From IMG/VR virus record IMGVR_UViG_2541047690_000002: a stretch of DNA of 43,349 bases; one strand, 5' to 3'. A program made the translations under genes and the position numbers. Shown in pieces: positions 6,420 through 18,520 of the stretch. How positions within the stretch are numbered: position 1 is the first letter of the stretch; the number at the start of each line of letters is the position of its first letter. The notes beneath the pieces are model-generated. The model had not been told where the DNA came from. It worked only from the letters and a program-made list of their open reading frames with translations, and did not search any database. Origin of the DNA: a virus (lineage: Duplodnaviria; Heunggongvirae; Uroviricota; Caudoviricetes).

Positions 6420-6500
6420 GTGATAATAGCTATTGCTATTGGTGATATCAATACTTATTGCTATTAGTTGATGTGTTTTGATATTAAATGTTTGATAGCA
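6420..6500. promoter_or_regulatory. Putative leftward operator/promoter region (OL/PL analogue)
   Basis: AT-rich stretch with reiterated TATTGCTATT and GATATCAAAACAC-type motifs that recur in the cI-cro intergenic region (8860..8969); lies upstream of the leftward early genes. Confidence 0.45.
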
Positions 6501-6588
6501 AAAAGAATTAATTTTGTGACTTGCATCGCATAGCGATAACTGAAGTGAGGTCGTGGTGGTTTTTTGAACGGTGTGTGATGAGGGGAGG

Positions 6589-6617
6589 GCAAAAGAAAAC
6601 CCGGCACGGTGGCCGGG
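6589..6617 (-). terminator. Intrinsic terminator downstream of the cI-linked cassette
   Basis: Minus-strand reading: hairpin CCCGGC-(6 nt loop)-GCCGGG at 6600..6617 followed by GTTTTCTTTTGC U-tract (6589..6599); abuts the stop codon of the 149-aa membrane-protein gene. Confidence 0.6.
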
Positions 6618-7067
6618 TTATTGTTCTTGATTGATCTTATCGAAGATATCATGACTTAATTTTTGCACATTTAGGAAATTTACTATGAAGAAGACAATTG
6701 CGTAAATTATTAATGTGAAAAAAAGTATTGAAGGAGAGAATTTTAGTATCAGGGATTTAAATTCAAAGCTGAACTCATACTCTTTTAAATATTCACTAAG
6801 CACAAGGCATAAAGTAGAAAGAGTGAAAAAGCGCAAAAAAGAATTTCGTATAGATACCAATTCTTTTCTGATAACTTTAACATAATTAATGTTTTTAATG
6901 CCAGACATGTTAAAAGTTACAATCAACCCTAACCCGATAGAAAACATTATGCCACAGACAGAATACAATGTAGAAATCAAAAACTGATCAGGCCTCCAAG
7001 CTAAAAATGATGGAAGCCCGATAGTAATTATCAGAACAATTAGCAAGCTAGCTATTTGTCGCTTCAT
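6618..7067 (-). CDS. Small four-helix integral membrane protein in the RexB position (candidate exclusion-system effector)
   Basis: 149 aa; four hydrophobic segments of about 20 residues (approx. residues 4-24, 32-52, 80-100, 113-134); markedly AT-rich codon usage; 20-nt overlap with the upstream gene; same strand and immediately downstream of cI. Confidence 0.6.
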   Translation of the reverse strand: MKRQIASLLIVLIITIGLPSFLAWRPDQFLISTLYSVCGIMFSIGLGLIVTFNMSGIKNINYVKVIRKELVSIRNSFLRFFTLSTLCLVLSEYLKEYEFSFEFKSLILKFSPSILFFTLIIYAIVFFIVNFLNVQKLSHDIFDKINQEQ

Positions 7068-8073
7068 TTTCTATCTCTTTTAAATATCTGCTCATTTCTT
7101 GAAATACCTCTTGTTCTACAAGCTTGCCTGAATCAGTAACCTCAATTGTTACAATTTTAATCTTAAGAAGATCTTTGCCTTTTATTTCTGAGCGACCATC
7201 ACTTCGTTTGAATACAATGTTATCAAGATCACTAACAGGTTTTAATGTTGCACCTAATAGTTTAGCATAACTATCTTCATCCATGCTCCTTGGTTTACTA
7301 AACTTTATCAACAGTTCAGCTGATACTATTTGATTGTCAATTATTTCTTTTAGATTTGGGAAATTTGGTACAGCTGATTTCAATGCATTTAAAACAGCGT
7401 GTGAAAGTTTTATTTTTGTATTTTTTTCTTCAATTTCTGATGGTGGCGATTTCATATCGGATGACTGAACCAATACTTCTTTTGGAAGAGGAGATGGATC
7501 TCTCACAGAAATTGATTTTATATCCTTAAGCTGAACTTTATTACCTTTAACAATCATCGGTGTGAATTCAATCATTTCATTCCCAACCAGCCAGCGTATA
7601 TAAGTTTGTAGAGATGATATAGTCCTATTCATCTGCAGATTGGTAACTAAATAATTATCACTTATACAGAAGTAGAAATGGTTTTTGCATACGACCTCTG
7701 TATCAATGTCAGCATTATGGAGATCACTAATTGTAAATGATTTTTTGTTAAAAAGTTGATCGGGAATCTTTTCAACTCCCTCGCTTGGGGCAATTCTAAC
7801 CATTGTACAAAAAACAGAATTACTGTTGTCTGATGTCTGATAGAACGATATCAAATCTTGTTCTTGCCTAAGATCGTCAGAGTTTAAAACCATGCAACGT
7901 TCTTTTACGGTAGATGAGTCAACTAGCTTTTGTAATAAAAGCTTTTTCGCGGGGCTAGATTTTTCTGTTAGATTATTGTTTTCTATCTTAAAAGCTCTTA
8001 ATTTCACTTGTTTAGGTTTATTATGTTTTTTATTTACAGAGCTGCTATTTTCACTATTCATAGAATCAACCAT
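7048..8073 (-). CDS. Hypothetical 341-aa protein in the RexA position (candidate sensor of a cI-linked exclusion system)
   Basis: ATG at 8073; AT-rich, Lys/Asn/Ser-rich product without recognisable catalytic motif; 93-nt gap from cI stop, co-directional with cI. Confidence 0.55.
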   Translation of the reverse strand: MVDSMNSENSSSVNKKHNKPKQVKLRAFKIENNNLTEKSSPAKKLLLQKLVDSSTVKERCMVLNSDDLRQEQDLISFYQTSDNSNSVFCTMVRIAPSEGVEKIPDQLFNKKSFTISDLHNADIDTEVVCKNHFYFCISDNYLVTNLQMNRTISSLQTYIRWLVGNEMIEFTPMIVKGNKVQLKDIKSISVRDPSPLPKEVLVQSSDMKSPPSEIEEKNTKIKLSHAVLNALKSAVPNFPNLKEIIDNQIVSAELLIKFSKPRSMDEDSYAKLLGATLKPVSDLDNIVFKRSDGRSEIKGKDLLKIKIVTIEVTDSGKLVEQEVFQEMSRYLKEIENEATNS

Positions 8074-8166
8074 TGATTATGTGTAGTTTTATAATGTAGT
8101 AAGCATCAAGTATTTTTATAATTTGAGTTTGGTTTATCACACAAACATTTAAACCAACTTGCTAAG

Positions 8167-10783: not shown

Positions 10784-11502
10784 AAAACATCGCCGCACAG
10801 ATGATTAACTTTGACCGTGAGCAGATGCGTCGGATCGCCAACAACATGCCGGAACAGTACGACGAAAAGCCGCAGGTACAGCAGGTAGCGCAGATTATCA
10901 ATGGTGTGTTCAGCCAGTTACTGGCAACTTTCCCGGCGAGCCTGGCTAACCGGGACCAGAACGAACTGAACGAAATCCGCCGCCAGTGGGTGCTGGCTTT
11001 CCGGGAAAACGGGATCGCCACAATGGAACAGGTTAACGCAGGAATGCGCGTAGCCCGTCGGCAGAATCGACCATTTCTGCCATCACCCGGGCAGTTTGTT
11101 GCATGGTGCCGGGAAGAAGCATCCGTTACCGCCGGGCTGCCAAACGTCAGCGAGCTGGTTGATATGGTTTACGAGTATTGCCGGAAGCGTGGCCTGTATC
11201 CGGACGCAGAGTCTTATCCATGGAAATCAAACGCGCACTACTGGTTGGTTACCAACCTGTACCAGAATATGCGGGCCAATGCGTTGACTGACTCGGAATT
11301 ACGGCGCAAGGCTGCCGATGAACTTGCCCATATGACTGCGAGAATTAACCGTGGTGAGGCGATTCCCGAGCCAGTTAAACAGCTTCCGGTTATTGGTGGT
11401 AAGCCGCTATCCCGTATACAAGGATTGGCAAAGTTGGCTGAGATTCGCGAGAAGCACGGACTGAGAAGACGTAAACAATTAACGGGAGTGAAGCTAACCT
11501 GA
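10780..11502 (+). CDS. P: Replication protein P (DnaB helicase loader)
   Basis: 240-aa translation recalled as near-identical to lambda P over most of its length (MKNIAAQMINFDREQMRRIANNMPEQYDEKPQ...); start overlaps O stop (ATGA). Confidence 0.92.
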   Translation: MKNIAAQMINFDREQMRRIANNMPEQYDEKPQVQQVAQIINGVFSQLLATFPASLANRDQNELNEIRRQWVLAFRENGIATMEQVNAGMRVARRQNRPFLPSPGQFVAWCREEASVTAGLPNVSELVDMVYEYCRKRGLYPDAESYPWKSNAHYWLVTNLYQNMRANALTDSELRRKAADELAHMTARINRGEAIPEPVKQLPVIGGKPLSRIQGLAKLAEIREKHGLRRRKQLTGVKLT

Positions 11503-11847
11503 ACTACCTTCAAGACACATAAAACCTTTCCCCCAGAAAATATAGTTCATCCTGCGGCATCAACCAGACCGTAAACATTCTGACAAAGCAGGGCGATCTG
11601 GTCGATGTCAGCAATATCTAGCGAACGATTCACTACCGATTGGTAACCGAAGAGGAAATCTCTTGGCACAAAAGCACCAATCAGATTTTCGATGATGGCC
11701 CCCAAGCCCGGTGATGACGCGAATTTTACTAGCCTACGAGAGGAACGGAGCATGAAGACAGCACCGAGCACAGTGTAACTATTCGATTTTTTTCTGTTTG
11801 ATTTTTCGACATACTACATTATATAGCTCGATATCCTTTCATTTTAC

Positions 11848-13053
11848 TTATTCAATTAACGGTACTTGTTTGTTGCAGAATACTAATATTGCATCTTGAG
11901 TAAGTTTTTTATGCATATGCTTTAGCGGCTCAATGTTAGTCTCGTAACCGAAAGTAGCGAAAAGAGTTGGTTCTATAATGAAATTTTCTTCATAAGCTTT
12001 TAGATCAAATGCTCTCTTTGCAATTAATCTAACTGCTTTCTTTCTAATGCGTGAATTATATCTATTCTCTATGCTAAGTTTAGCCATGTTTTCATCGATG
12101 TTGTTTTTTTGTTTTTTTAGTATAATTTGAATGTGATCATCATCAATTTGGCCATCTCTATATATATAATCAATGTCATAATTAAAATCAAAAAGCTGAG
12201 TGTCATTTACACCTTCAAGAAAAGGATTTGAAAATGGGCTCATGATCGGATCGAGTGATTTTTTATAAGTACTATTGCATTTAGTGCAGCTAGGAATTAA
12301 GTTAAATAAACTAAAGGAGATCAACGGATATTTGTACTTAGGTATGAAATGATCAAATGCTGGCCTGTAGCTAGTACCTGTATGGTCTTCTACTTGTTCA
12401 ATTTCTTCACTGTTGCAATATGGGCATATGCTAATGTCTAAAAAACTGTTCAATTGATACGCTGTTTCTCTATCAATAAGTGAGTATTTAAATATTTCAG
12501 AAATATTTTTAACCCATGATGGAAATAACTTAATGGTATTTTCCTTTAAAGGACCACCATTCTTGATACTTATAAGATTAAGAATCTTATCTCTTAAACT
12601 AGATAATTTTTGTGGTGAGAAATGTGTATTTAATATATCCTCAAGTATTAGGCTTTGTGTAGTTTGAGAGAAAGATGTGATTATTTTGATGGCATGTGCT
12701 AGTTCATTATAAACTATTTTTTTGTTTTCTTTTGTTTTTAAAGGTAATTGTAGGTTTGTTAATGGTTGTAAATTTAAGTGCCTTAAAAAATAATCAGGAG
12801 AATAGTACTCACACACAATTGGGTGTTTGTTGTATATTTTGATGATTATATTTTTTAATCGTTTGGGTTTTGAAAAAACTAATTTTCTGATAGTTTTTTT
12901 GTTGATTGTATTTAGAAACTCTACTTCATCGGGAGTAATGTTCAGTAACTTCCTCTGCTTCACGCGTTTATTAACTTTGCTTACTATTTTAGAAAAGGAT
13001 ATTTTTACATCAACATTGAAGTCTTTGTTTATTTTTATCATTTTTTTACTCAT
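11848..13053 (-). CDS. HNH (His-Me finger) motif protein, putative nuclease effector (PtuB-like)
   Basis: 401 aa; motif CPYCN-x20-DHFIPKYKYP-x10-NLIPSCTKCN at residues about 210-260 (nt about 12265..12426) matches the C-X2-C...DH...N...C-X2-C HNH pattern; extremely AT-rich; start overlaps upstream ATPase stop (ATGA). Confidence 0.6.
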   Translation of the reverse strand: MSKKMIKINKDFNVDVKISFSKIVSKVNKRVKQRKLLNITPDEVEFLNTINKKTIRKLVFSKPKRLKNIIIKIYNKHPIVCEYYSPDYFLRHLNLQPLTNLQLPLKTKENKKIVYNELAHAIKIITSFSQTTQSLILEDILNTHFSPQKLSSLRDKILNLISIKNGGPLKENTIKLFPSWVKNISEIFKYSLIDRETAYQLNSFLDISICPYCNSEEIEQVEDHTGTSYRPAFDHFIPKYKYPLISFSLFNLIPSCTKCNSTYKKSLDPIMSPFSNPFLEGVNDTQLFDFNYDIDYIYRDGQIDDDHIQIILKKQKNNIDENMAKLSIENRYNSRIRKKAVRLIAKRAFDLKAYEENFIIEPTLFATFGYETNIEPLKHMHKKLTQDAILVFCNKQVPLIE

Positions 13054-14837
13054 TTCTCAAAAGAATCTGTTTTATCATTGTTTTTGTTTAACTTCAGATC
13101 AATAAGATTTATGAGAAGTTTATTTTTAATTTGTGATAGTATGGTTTTTTGATGTTTATTTAAATTACCGTCATCTGAGTTTTTTATTATTGAGTTTAGA
13201 TAATTATGTGCGTGCTGTCCTATTGTAGCATCAATAAAAAAACCATTTATATATAATTCTGATATGGTTGCTCCGAAACCAAACTCTACTTTCTTAGTAT
13301 AGGTTCCTTGATTATGATCTCTTTCAAGATATATTATATCTGATGGCAAAAAATCACTTGCGAGTATAGGGGAGTGAGTTGTAAATACTAATTGAATATT
13401 TTTACTTTGTTTATATCTTAATGTTAAATCTATAATTTCTGAAAAAATAACTCGTTGCCATTCAGGGTGTAGATATAAATCACACTCATCTAATAATATT
13501 ATAATATTTTTGCTGTTGCTATGTTCTATAGAATCATAAAGTTGATTGAAAAGGTTTAATTTTGCAAACTCTCCTGAACTAAGTGAATCCCAACCATACT
13601 TAAATCGCGATGATACGCCATTTGGTAACCTATCAACTAATCTTATTAACTCCATAATCTGCTTTGGTTCTTCAACTGTGAAAGATAAACTATCAACTGG
13701 GTCTCTTGCTGTGTTTTCTAATATATCAGCTATATTACCTATAATGTCGGAGATATGTTCAGATAACATTTCTATTTTTGACTGAAATTTAACATTAACG
13801 TTAAATTCATCTAAAGTCTCTAATATAGTTTTTGCTGGATCTTTTTCTTCAAGATACGCGCGACACAAGCAAAATAAATAAACAGTCTCACATATGTCTT
13901 TAGGGATTTTTGATGTCTTGAGTAAATGCCATGTTATTGCAGGCAAAAGCATCAAGTAAATTATTTTGTGATATGAAAAGGTTGCGAGGAAATTTAATGA
14001 TCTTTCTTTGTTAAAAATAATGCTAATAATAAAATCTTCATCGTAATCTATCCCATGATTGAGTATATCCACAAGTGAAATACCTAAAGAATCTAAATCA
14101 CGTTCAATATATCTAGGGAGTTTATTGTTTTTAATTCTATCATTCAACGTATCAAAAAAGTATTCAATAGCTCCAAAAAGTCCTTTGTCACCAATATCAT
14201 TGTTTTTTATAATAGAATTTATTTTATATACTGGTGAGTTTTCTATTTCAAATTGAAATTTAGTATTAAGTCTTGATAAATTGTCTTTAGCCCATGAACT
14301 GTGGTCTGAAAATGAAATTAATTGCTTGAGTAATTTCTTATTGCGTGTTTTACTGCCTTGCAAAAAATATGACAGTGATAAATCTTTAGAAATCGAATCG
14401 TTTTTTTTCTTTTTTTGTCCAACTAACATACTTTTGAGGTCGATTGTGTTATTTATCTTTATTAGGTTGATTTTGTTTCTTCTAAAAAAATGTTCATTAT
14501 TATCAATCAGTTCCGTTTGCATTTTGGATAATATTACAGGAGGTTTGCAATTGCTTGTGATAATTATAAGTTTATCATTTTCATTCCAGATGCTATAACC
14601 GCTACCTTCAAAATCGTAAATAAAGCTACTAATGAAATCTAAAATTGATGACTTTCCAACACCATTTTTCCCTAAAATTAATGTACAGGGAATATTGCTA
14701 TAATAGTCACGACTTAAATCTTTCTTAGCAATTGTAAGGACGTTACCTTTATGGCTAAAGGTAAATTTACTTGAGGTGGGGAGGGACAGCTTATTTAAAC
14801 CTTTATAATTGTGGATATAAGTGTATATTAGTTCCAT
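13050..14837 (-). CDS. ABC-type/AAA ATPase (PtuA/AriA/OLD-like defense ATPase)
   Basis: 595 aa; Walker A GKNGVGKSS (residues 56-64), ABC-signature-like LSSGE, Walker B IIILLDECD and H-loop FTTHSP near the C-terminus; AT-rich. Confidence 0.7.
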   Translation of the reverse strand: MELIYTYIHNYKGLNKLSLPTSSKFTFSHKGNVLTIAKKDLSRDYYSNIPCTLILGKNGVGKSSILDFISSFIYDFEGSGYSIWNENDKLIIITSNCKPPVILSKMQTELIDNNEHFFRRNKINLIKINNTIDLKSMLVGQKKKKNDSISKDLSLSYFLQGSKTRNKKLLKQLISFSDHSSWAKDNLSRLNTKFQFEIENSPVYKINSIIKNNDIGDKGLFGAIEYFFDTLNDRIKNNKLPRYIERDLDSLGISLVDILNHGIDYDEDFIISIIFNKERSLNFLATFSYHKIIYLMLLPAITWHLLKTSKIPKDICETVYLFCLCRAYLEEKDPAKTILETLDEFNVNVKFQSKIEMLSEHISDIIGNIADILENTARDPVDSLSFTVEEPKQIMELIRLVDRLPNGVSSRFKYGWDSLSSGEFAKLNLFNQLYDSIEHSNSKNIIILLDECDLYLHPEWQRVIFSEIIDLTLRYKQSKNIQLVFTTHSPILASDFLPSDIIYLERDHNQGTYTKKVEFGFGATISELYINGFFIDATIGQHAHNYLNSIIKNSDDGNLNKHQKTILSQIKNKLLINLIDLKLNKNNDKTDSFEK

Positions 14838-15359
14838 TATATAACCAATCTCTTAAATATGAAAAAACATAATGGGGTGATAGGCGTATTTGAAAAATAC
14901 ACGCTACCGCCACCTAGCGTTAAGCTGGGAGTGTTATTTTTATATTTTACCCCAAGTATTTGTTTTATGCAATTGTATCATCACATCTTTTGAAAGTTTG
15001 CTTTCTAAATGTAATTGTAATTTTAAACGGGTTTAATTGTTTTAAAGTGTTTGGGTGATTTGTTTTTCGAGGTTGCCTTCATAAATTAAGAGATAAAAAC
15101 GTTGTAATGTATTTTTATATGAGTGAGCTAATAAATGAAATCTTGATTGAAAATTATAGGTTGGCGGTTACTTAAATTTGATTTTCCAAAATCAGATCGT
15201 CATAATTATCGCATCGAAGCCTGAACACCTCCGGTGACTTCTGCGCTAAACGGGGACGTTTATGCGCACATACAATCTAAACTCTCTTCTCCCTTCACAG
15301 ATGCAGAAATGCACCTGCGATTCTTTGCATCCAACGTTTGACCTCTGCGGAGGTGAAGC

Positions 15360-17422: not shown

Positions 17423-18520
17423 TTAGAACTGGTAAACCAGACCTACAGCAACGATGTCATCAGTGCTTACACCGAGTGCTTTAGTGAAGTCATTTTTGTC
17501 AAGCAGGTTGATTTTGTAATCAACGAAAGTAGACATATTTTTGTTGAAGTAATAGGTTGCACCTACATCAACATATTTGACTAAGTCCTGATCGCCCCAT
17601 ACTCCAAGATCTTTACCTTTAGATTGCAGGTAAGCAACGGACGGACGCAGACCGAAATCGAACTGATATTGTGCAACAGCTTCGAAGTTTTGGGCTTTAT
17701 TAGCAACGAAGTGATCAGCAAATACAGTCATATTCTGGGTTTCAGAATAGGTAGTGGCCAGGTAAATGTTGTTAGCGTCATATTTCAGACCTGCGGCCCA
17801 AACTTCTGCATTTTTACCGGAAGCAAATACTTCAGGAAGAACTTTCCCTGCATTAACTTGAGTGTCGGTACGATCAGATTTCGCATAAGTTGCACCGATA
17901 CCGAATCCTTCGTATTCATAGGTAGCAGAGAAACCGAAGCCATCACCGTTACCTTCAGTGTAGTTATCGAAATCGCTACGATCGTTTTTGCCTTGGTACT
18001 GAGCAGCAAAGTTCAGACCATCAACCAGACCAAAGAAGTCGTTGTTACGATAGGTTGCAACACCAGTGGTGCGACCAGTCATGAACACATCTGTTTGGGT
18101 CCAGGTATCGCCACCGAATTCTGGCAGAACGTCAGTCCACGCACCGATGTCGTATGCTACACCGTAGTTACGGCCGTAATCGATTGAGCCGTAGTCACCG
18201 AATTTCAGGCCTGCAAATGCAAGACGGGTTTTGTCTTTGGAGGAACCTTGAGATTCAGCGCGGTTGCCTTTGAATTCATATTCCCACTGACCGAAACCAG
18301 TCAGTTGATCGTTGATTTGGGTTTCACCTTTGAAGCCAAGACGGGCATAAGTAGTATCACCATCATCTGCATCATTAGAGGAGAAGTAGTGCTTGGCATT
18401 AACTTTCCCGTACAGATCCAGCTTGTTACTGTCTTTATTATAAATTTCAGCTGCCTGAGCAGACATCGCCATCAGTACTGATGCAGCTACAGCAGAAATT
18501 GCCACTGTTAATTTTTTCAT
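17423..18520 (-). CDS. nmpC: Outer-membrane porin, OmpC/NmpC family (prophage moron)
   Basis: 365-aa product with signal peptide ([23 protein letters not shown]) and C-terminal ...VGLVYQF beta-barrel terminus; same place and orientation as nmpC in DLP12. Confidence 0.9.

Follow-up and report, generated by a model that had tools for sequence, protein, structure and literature searches.

A lambdoid prophage integrated at tRNA-Thr, represented by IMG/VR record IMGVR_UViG_2541047690_000002 (43,349 nucleotides (nt), the whole of which we refer to as the window), carries next to its replication genes a minus-strand cassette of two genes, A and B, that encode an ABC-type ATPase and an HNH protein. 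We think it likely that this cassette was acquired horizontally and is a Septu-type anti-phage module of two genes carried by a prophage, and more exactly a member of a divergent branch that PDC-M62, a PADLOC candidate system, has in gamma-proteobacteria. What the analysis shows is its homology, the folds, the conservation of motifs, the linkage of the genes, purifying selection, mobility and location; its defence activity, trigger, substrate, assembly and regulation are inferred. A first-pass annotation, made from the letters of the window alone, had reported two antisense open reading frames (ORFs) with ATPase and HNH motifs at 13050..14837 (A, 595 amino acids (aa)) and 11848..13053 (B, 401 aa), and we found the coordinates, the strand and the motif residues all to be correct. 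With the start codon of B chosen as explained below, the two genes are as follows:

13050..14837, minus strand: gene A, 595-aa ABC-type (SMC/Rad50/PtuA-like) ATPase
11848..13041, minus strand: gene B, 397-aa HNH protein; 401 aa if the ATG further upstream, at 13053, is used instead

RefSeq labels A an 'AAA family ATPase' and B a 'hypothetical protein'. The extreme AT-richness reported earlier is also real, the GC content being 0.29 between 11772 and 15200 and 0.52 in the remainder of the window. Long ORFs are improbable in DNA of 29% GC, and the ratios of nonsynonymous to synonymous substitution rates (dN/dS) are 0.09-0.20 when the genes are compared with their orthologues in six other genera, so chance ORFs are unlikely. 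The A-B pair is under purifying selection.

An ATGA overlap between A and B had been taken as a sign of translational coupling. The overlap is present in the window sequence, but RefSeq and all full-length relatives start B at Met5 (window 13041), 9 nt past the stop of A. Because other genera show different arrangements, with a gap of 6-9 nt or an overlap of 14-17 nt depending on the genus, it is the tight linkage of A and B that is conserved and not this particular overlap.

Protein A is a PtuA-like ATPase

Protein A has a Walker A motif (GKNGVGKS, residues 56-63), an ABC signature (LSSGE, 419-423), a Walker B motif (LLDECD, 448) and an H-loop (TTHSP, 486). In an alignment of 42 sequences, reaching down to ~20% identity, no variation is seen at G56, N58, G61, K62, S420, G422, D450 and E451, and hardly any at H488. 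The architecture includes a helical insertion at ~130-410 and a C-terminal helical extension. A Pfam search matched AAA_15 / AAA_21 and found no nuclease domain and no Toprim in A. A PtuA is recognized as an ABC-type ATPase that has all four of these motifs and no nuclease domain, and the nearest solved proteins are indeed PtuA: its chains are the nearest solved sequences in a search of PDB sequences, and it is the nearest solved structure when the model of A is used as a query. At the sequence level, A 442-582 aligns with 387-526 of retron PtuA, the C-terminal extension included. Lower structural matches are SMC/Rad50 heads (~15, with ~225 residues aligned), stand-alone PtuA (8ee4_A, 14.6), OLD (12.4) and AriA (11.9).

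The best PADLOC model for A is PDC-M62A (PDLC04734, 4e-44), which aligns over nearly the full length of the protein (residues 1-570 to model positions 1-548 of 597). PADLOC PtuA models follow at ~1e-19 with residues ~443-575 alone aligned, and weaker matches are AriA (2e-17), AbiLi (2.3e-16) and GajA (6.4e-14).

Protein B contains a PtuB-like nuclease module

The HNH pattern that was first read by eye in protein B survives careful alignment. In the numbering of the 397-aa protein it consists of C206-x2-C209, D230-H231, N247 and C252-x2-C255-N256, and these residues are invariant or nearly so across 47 relatives. A high-confidence structural model (predicted local distance difference test score (pLDDT) 89.4, predicted template modelling score (pTM) 0.84) divides B into an N-terminal helical region (~1-175), a PtuB-like HNH core with a CCCC zinc site, and a C-terminal helical region that runs to residue 397. 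The top PDB matches of the B profile are PtuB chains, and the nearest solved structures are PtuB as well. Because structure-match scores then drop to <=6.6, where generic helical bundles are found, the C-terminal half of B as modelled is a complete PtuB module, including the helices that follow the HNH core. An HNH beta-beta-alpha-metal nuclease with a helical C-terminal domain is the make-up of PtuB, and the regions used in PtuA-PtuB contact, the C-terminal extension of A and the C-terminal helices of B, are both present in the monomer models.

As with A, the best PADLOC models for B are from PDC-M62. PDC-M62B model PDLC04743 gives 1.2e-33 (residues 5-348 to positions 1-269 of 328) and PDLC04741 gives 8.9e-26 (5-351 to 1-323 of 401). 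The PADLOC PtuB model gives 2.7e-8 with residues 210-288 alone, and B falls under the TIGR02646 cut-off (14.8 vs 52 bits).

Two database entries show B in a broken or rearranged form. PHROGs divides it between phrog_9626 (residues 5-112) and phrog_8644 (residues 80-401), and therefore B must be annotated as two ORFs, through a frameshift or a miscall, in at least some viral or prophage records. A 487-aa protein from ENA (P0015), encoded on a contig of 2.1 kb, fuses domains of replication proteins to part of B and is probably a chimeric gene call.

Relationship to Septu, PDC-M62 and other ATPase-based defence systems

The pair had been proposed to be Septu-like and possibly a divergent or new variant, and the profile and structure searches agree: the PDC-M62A and PDC-M62B models are best, PtuA and PtuB are the nearest solved proteins, and the PtuA/PtuB families are the next named defence families after PDC-M62 in the PADLOC library. 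In a survey of the Bacillus cereus group, PADLOC Septu calls coincide with PDC-M62 (203) or PDC-M01 (41) calls (PMC11811056), and the same Bacillus gene pairs that DefenseFinder calls 'Septu' are called 'PDC-M62' by PADLOC (PMC11811056 supplement). Since both labels fall on the same gene pairs, PDC-M62 is a subtype that overlaps Septu. The relatives of B that we sampled, from Bacillus, Flavobacteriia, Vibrionaceae, Shewanella and Ewingella, all match PDC-M62B best.

The architecture of the cassette is already catalogued computationally as PDC-M62, with which it shares the order of the two genes, the ATPase first and then an HNH protein in which a long region precedes the HNH core. The differences from PDC-M62 are in degree and in extent: the scores of the cassette are modest (115-150 bits, vs 658 for a core Bacillus member), and the homology of B to the Bacillus clade is limited to residues 176-333, the N-terminal ~175 residues being specific to a clade of proteins of ~390-410 aa. 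The stand-alone Septu systems with which we compared the cassette are those of E. coli ATCC 25922 (8ee4/8ee7), Septu EcB88 and the Septu of B. thuringiensis HD12. Both proteins of the cassette are longer, A having 595 aa vs 465 aa in the solved PtuA chain 8ee4, and B having 397 aa vs 234 residues in PtuB chain 8ee7_C. The catalytic His of canonical PtuB is near position 53-75, and in B it is H231.

Several observations weigh against a Septu assignment, or at least against a simple one. Protein A reaches 48.5 bits with the NCBIfam PtuA model (a retron Ec78 equivalog) where the cut-off is 500, B reaches 13.8 bits with NCBIfam PtuB where it is 150, and the Pfam HNH score of B is just short of its cut-off (18.8 vs 21.4 bits). 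The PADLOC PtuA/PtuB models cover the catalytic cores only, and all of our PADLOC results are matches to its library of hidden Markov models and not calls by the PADLOC or DefenseFinder classifiers. No counterpart is known for the N-terminal domain of B, and how the system is regulated and what it targets might thus not be as in characterized Septu. Our literature search found no experiment on, and no experimental validation of, the cassette clade or any clearly PDC-M62-type pair, and no publication on the cassette clade or naming its RefSeq accessions. Because the cassette fits PDC-M62 yet fails the curated PtuA/PtuB thresholds, we file it as a divergent Septu variant and not as canonical PtuAB.

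Septu-like proteins also occur in type I-A retrons (Retron-Eco7/Ec78, Ec83). We rejected this type for the cassette, which misses the NCBIfam equivalog cut-offs and has no reverse transcriptase ORF or annotation nearby and no non-coding RNA (ncRNA) match in Rfam.

PARIS (AriA/AriB) and the OLD/Gabija families had been named as alternatives to Septu, and AbiL can be added to them. All share the AAA_15/AAA_21 ABC ATPase core with A, and A also matches the AriA, AbiLi and GajA models and OLD in the PDB. The nuclease of PARIS and OLD/Gabija is a Toprim/DUF4435 partner or fusion, whereas the partner here is an HNH protein with no DUF4435 or Toprim match, which excludes PARIS. OLD/Gabija was set aside because A lacks a Toprim domain and has no GajB-type helicase neighbour; membership of AbiL was considered and rejected too. 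With the AriA, GajA and OLD matches all weaker than those to PDC-M62 and PtuA, we give next to no credence to an origin of the cassette in one of these families and retain the Septu lineage.

The N-terminal domain of protein B

The long HNH partner had been described as having an N-terminal extension of roughly 200 residues. The extension exists, but measured against solved PtuB it is smaller, ~150-175 residues. It is predicted to be all-helical with pLDDT >90, and has no specific fold match among solved structures or the viral folds of BFVD. An exhaustive profile search with B 1-198 found 69 cluster representatives among 1.84 billion, nearly all of them 386-416 aa long with the domain at positions 1-200, while the shorter ones look like fragments. 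In none of the 69 is the domain fused to another effector.

In members of the PDC-M62B family, 106-224 residues precede the CxxC motif. Profile-profile comparison of B with the Bacillus long-form clade aligned residues 176-333 (99.9%, E 4.5e-35) and did not reach the N-terminal domain, and a local hmmsearch gave weak collinear similarity only. A long pre-HNH region is thus general to the PDC-M62 group, and the ~175-residue helical domain is confined to a small gamma-proteobacterial clade. Partners of ~395 aa with this domain are also found beside 26-29%-identical homologues of A in Shewanella and Pseudomonas. The domain is under purifying selection, its dN/dS being 0.13-0.26. Most likely, it adds a clade-specific regulatory, sensing or assembly function.

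Location of the cassette in the prophage

The early region of the prophage contains, in order, a CI-like repressor (Peptidase_S24 plus a helix-turn-helix), a YdaT-domain protein, O (PF04492), P (PF06992) and the cassette, to the right of which are a 33-codon ORF, ybcN, ninE, ybcO, rusA and a Q-type antiterminator. The cassette had been placed between P and ninB; P is indeed on its left, but on its right is ybcN and not a canonical ninB. YbcN matches the NinB model weakly (20.8 bits, cut-off 23.8), and RefSeq calls it YbcN while some phage records call it 'NinB'.

That the cassette occupies the ren/ninA slot, as was suggested, is apparent from the ren remnant still present there (~11557-11721, plus strand), which is 72-73% identical to annotated ren genes and has in-frame stops. 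A sister prophage (L012, from an O8:H8 strain) is 96% identical to the window over O, over the greater part of P and, to the right, from 15175 on, and carries intact ren and two small plus-strand genes where the cassette sits. Because the homology with L012 stops at 11409, inside P, the sequence comparison indicates that recombination brought in the cassette along with an alternative 3' end of P and part of ren. The segments on which this is based are the following:

11410..11771, plus strand: left mosaic segment travelling with the cassette, made up of the alternative P 3' end (to 11502) and decayed ren; L012 homology ends at 11409, and the DNA is collinear with Serratia from 11149
11772..15174, no strand: AT-rich cargo block with the cassette, GC 0.29; right junction with common lambdoid sequence at 15174/15175, and L012 homology resumes at 15175

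We looked in the cassette flanks for direct or inverted repeats suggesting transposition or site-specific integration, and for target-site duplications, and found none. Other cargo occupies the slot in sister prophages. In the literature, we did not find the replication-nin slot described as a defence hotspot. A 74-aa minus-strand ORF at 11547..11771 was considered as a third gene of the cassette and rejected, being antisense to the ren pseudogene and probably spurious; a RefSeq 40-aa 'hypothetical protein' opposite the ren remnant is probably spurious as well.

Distribution and mobility

The cassette is rare. It is found in 6 of 5,426 complete E. coli genomes, at 99.3-99.9% identity, while ~3,000 genomes of the same set have the adjacent ybcN-region sequence, and DNA and tblastn searches of 50,697 phage records found no copy. 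The linkage of the genes is maintained throughout: A and B are adjacent and co-directional, ATPase then HNH, at 11 of 11 distinct loci (10 genera plus one further genome assembly). The pair is antisense in the replication-nin slot in four of the seven genera that have it at full length, and the antisense orientation is kept in all four intact lambdoid contexts, namely this window, Pantoea, Citrobacter and Enterobacter. We observed the following contexts in other genomes:

Pantoea, Enterobacter: P on one side and the nin genes on the other, pair antisense; the stops of the convergent genes B and P are only 16 nt apart in Pantoea
Citrobacter: same slot, pair antisense; the replication module of this prophage is of the DnaC type
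Serratia: an IS3 transposase adjoins the pair; the DNA is collinear with window 11149-15089 and includes a fragment of ybcN
Morganella: beside tail-fibre genes; small P and pre-ybcN fragments; collinear with window 11670-15177
Atlantibacter: chromosomal pair
Ewingella: an ORF with a YbcO domain and an ORF for an integrase fragment lie nearby; the contig ends inside A
Pseudomonas (distant relative): pair adjoins a ParDE toxin-antitoxin
NCBI assembly P0019 (distant relative): pair adjoins a type I HsdR restriction gene

Given its collinear DNA and ybcN fragment, the Serratia copy is a decayed version of the same arrangement. Fragments of P and of the ybcN region flank the copies outside the slot (Serratia L002 7874-7946 and 11194-11893; Morganella L006 7754-7816 and 11370-11463), and therefore the cassette moved with pieces of the lambdoid slot. 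Taken together, these contexts are the pattern of mobile defence cargo with a long association with the lambdoid replication-nin slot.

The repeated use of one slot, with P and ybcN-region fragments carried along even in decayed or relocated copies, is also what might be expected of a selfish addiction or homing-type module, one that keeps the cassette in the slot or spreads it there without really protecting against phages. Homing endonucleases are commonly HNH proteins, and characterized PtuAB is toxic if unrestrained. We nevertheless consider such a module improbable. B has the full PtuB fold with partner-binding C-terminal helices, not the architecture of a homing endonuclease, and is obligately linked to a PtuA-like ATPase; the distant relatives lie outside prophages, beside restriction and toxin-antitoxin genes. 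The absence of target-site duplications and flanking repeats noted above also speaks against it, and recombination in flanking homologous phage genes suffices to explain the shared slot.

The same data bear on a role in the life cycle of the phage itself, with B as an HNH cofactor for terminase and packaging or the pair as a recombination or replication accessory. The cassette does sit among replication and recombination genes, and in some siphophages a terminase is paired with an HNH protein, but several observations count against such a role: the cassette is AT-rich and runs antisense to the operon, near-identical sister prophages lack it, as do all of the phage records, and it occurs at non-prophage chromosomal sites as well. 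Neither is there any structural match among viral proteins (BFVD). We see hardly any chance that this explains the cassette.

A conserved candidate promoter and leader motif

Upstream of A, the AT-rich block contains two elements that stand out when genera are compared:

14944..14972, minus strand: candidate sigma-70 promoter of the cassette, read from sequence; -35 TTGCAT (14972..14967), 17-nt spacer, -10 TAAAAT (14949..14944)
14901..14913, minus strand: GC-rich leader motif GTGGCGGTAGC(G/A)T, ~65-75 nt upstream of the ATG of A and ~35 nt downstream of the promoter

The candidate promoter predicts a leader of ~100 nt, and upstream of A its position, its spacing and most of its bases are kept across seven genera. 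A generic promoter/terminator scan gave 24 sites vs 19 expected in AT-rich DNA, and missed this candidate, which is below its -35 match threshold. Because such a scan is uninformative in AT-rich DNA, the case for the promoter rests on its conservation across genera. Judging from the sequence, the cassette is probably expressed in the lysogen from this promoter of its own, and early-right read-through during induction may interfere with that expression, possibly silencing it.

The 11-mer GTGGCGGTAGC (14913..14903) is identical in seven genera, in surrounding AT-rich DNA that is poorly conserved. It is unique in the window, is found upstream of A in every close locus, and is absent from the distant tier of relatives (its other positions are L002 8130-8140, L004 8135-8145, L006 8164-8174, L014 1625-1635, L015 1632-1642 and L016 1626-1636). 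Synonymous divergence among the loci that bear it ranges from 0.4 to saturation. RNAalifold found no conserved RNA helix in the leader across genera; a hairpin seen in E. coli only (z -2.1) is lost in more distant genera. The Rfam search gave no credible ncRNA, and in a comparison with the prophage's own operators the 11-mer was unlike them.

Conservation of this kind matters for the question of whether the cassette has lost its function and is a relic in decay, left over from horizontal DNA transfer. Its rarity, its foreign composition and its place beside a ren pseudogene are suggestive of one. A relic would not be expected to have both ORFs intact in seven genera, dN/dS of 0.09-0.26 with the N-terminal domain included, invariant catalytic residues, and a conserved candidate promoter and leader motif, and we judge this explanation very unlikely.

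A more elaborate version of the defence reading would see in the N-terminal domain of B a new module for sensing or for selecting targets, with a trigger or substrate unlike the tail-fibre/ATP-regulated DNA nicking or the tRNA-Tyr cleavage of characterized systems (see below). In this version, GTGGCGGTAGC would be a dedicated regulatory site which, with the antisense slot, couples expression to the lysogenic or lytic state such that the prophage spares itself. We offer this tentatively, as a possibility with the odds against it.

Proposed mechanism

Work on other systems provides the basis for a model. In stand-alone PtuAB, a PtuA hexamer associates with PtuB, DNA nicking is inhibited by ATP, and phage proteins, tail-fibre tips for example, sensitise the complex (PMC12819146; bioRxiv 10.1101/2022.08.27.505566). 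In solved PtuAB complexes, the C-terminal helices of PtuB dock on PtuA at its C-terminal extension (PMC12819146). For E. coli Septu EcB88 and Retron-Eco7, cleavage of tRNA-Tyr in its variable loop during infection has been reported, for which the Walker residues and the H and N residues of the HNH motif are needed (PMC13096335).

By homology to the solved PtuAB complexes, we propose that A would oligomerise and keep B inactive in a complex, with contact between the C-terminal helical extension of A and the C-terminal helices of B. Infection by another phage would disturb this complex, via a phage protein and/or a fall in ATP. The zinc-stabilised beta-beta-alpha-metal site of B (H231, N247, N256) would then cut nucleic acid, such that phage replication halts; the infected cell is predicted to stop growing and the yield of phage to be lost.

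Other accessory genes in the window

The window has a second AT-rich island at 6500-8100 (GC 0.31-0.35), in the rexAB-type slot directly downstream of the CI-like repressor gene. It contains overlapping minus-strand ORFs at 7048..8073 (341 aa) and 6618..7067 (149 aa) with no Pfam or PADLOC match, which are possibly another prophage exclusion or defence pair. The cargo of this slot differs in sister prophages, where we found a DUF7946 protein, or a 310-aa protein with DUF6932. From an annotated locus that is 99% identical (L001), we also predict further morons in this prophage: a minus-strand porin gene at 17423-18520, between the Q antiterminator and the lysis genes, and an iss/bor-type lipoprotein gene on the minus strand after the lysis genes.

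Implications

An ABC ATPase with an HNH protein as a prophage moron is an already well-known kind of module in a well-known kind of place, and in that sense the cassette will be of little surprise to specialists. Its value is more specific. The Septu systems that we found tested in E. coli (PMC13096335) and Providencia are of the short PtuB type, and the cassette, compact and native to E. coli, represents the long-PtuB (PDC-M62-type) branch and is thus tractable. Its contexts show that the lambdoid replication-nin (ren) slot has long housed this cargo across Enterobacterales, and it provides a concrete case in which to ask how a prophage avoids triggering an abortive-infection module of its own. 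If the cassette does act in defence, it would tie a PADLOC candidate to a validated system, and one would then want to know what B senses or regulates with its extra domain.

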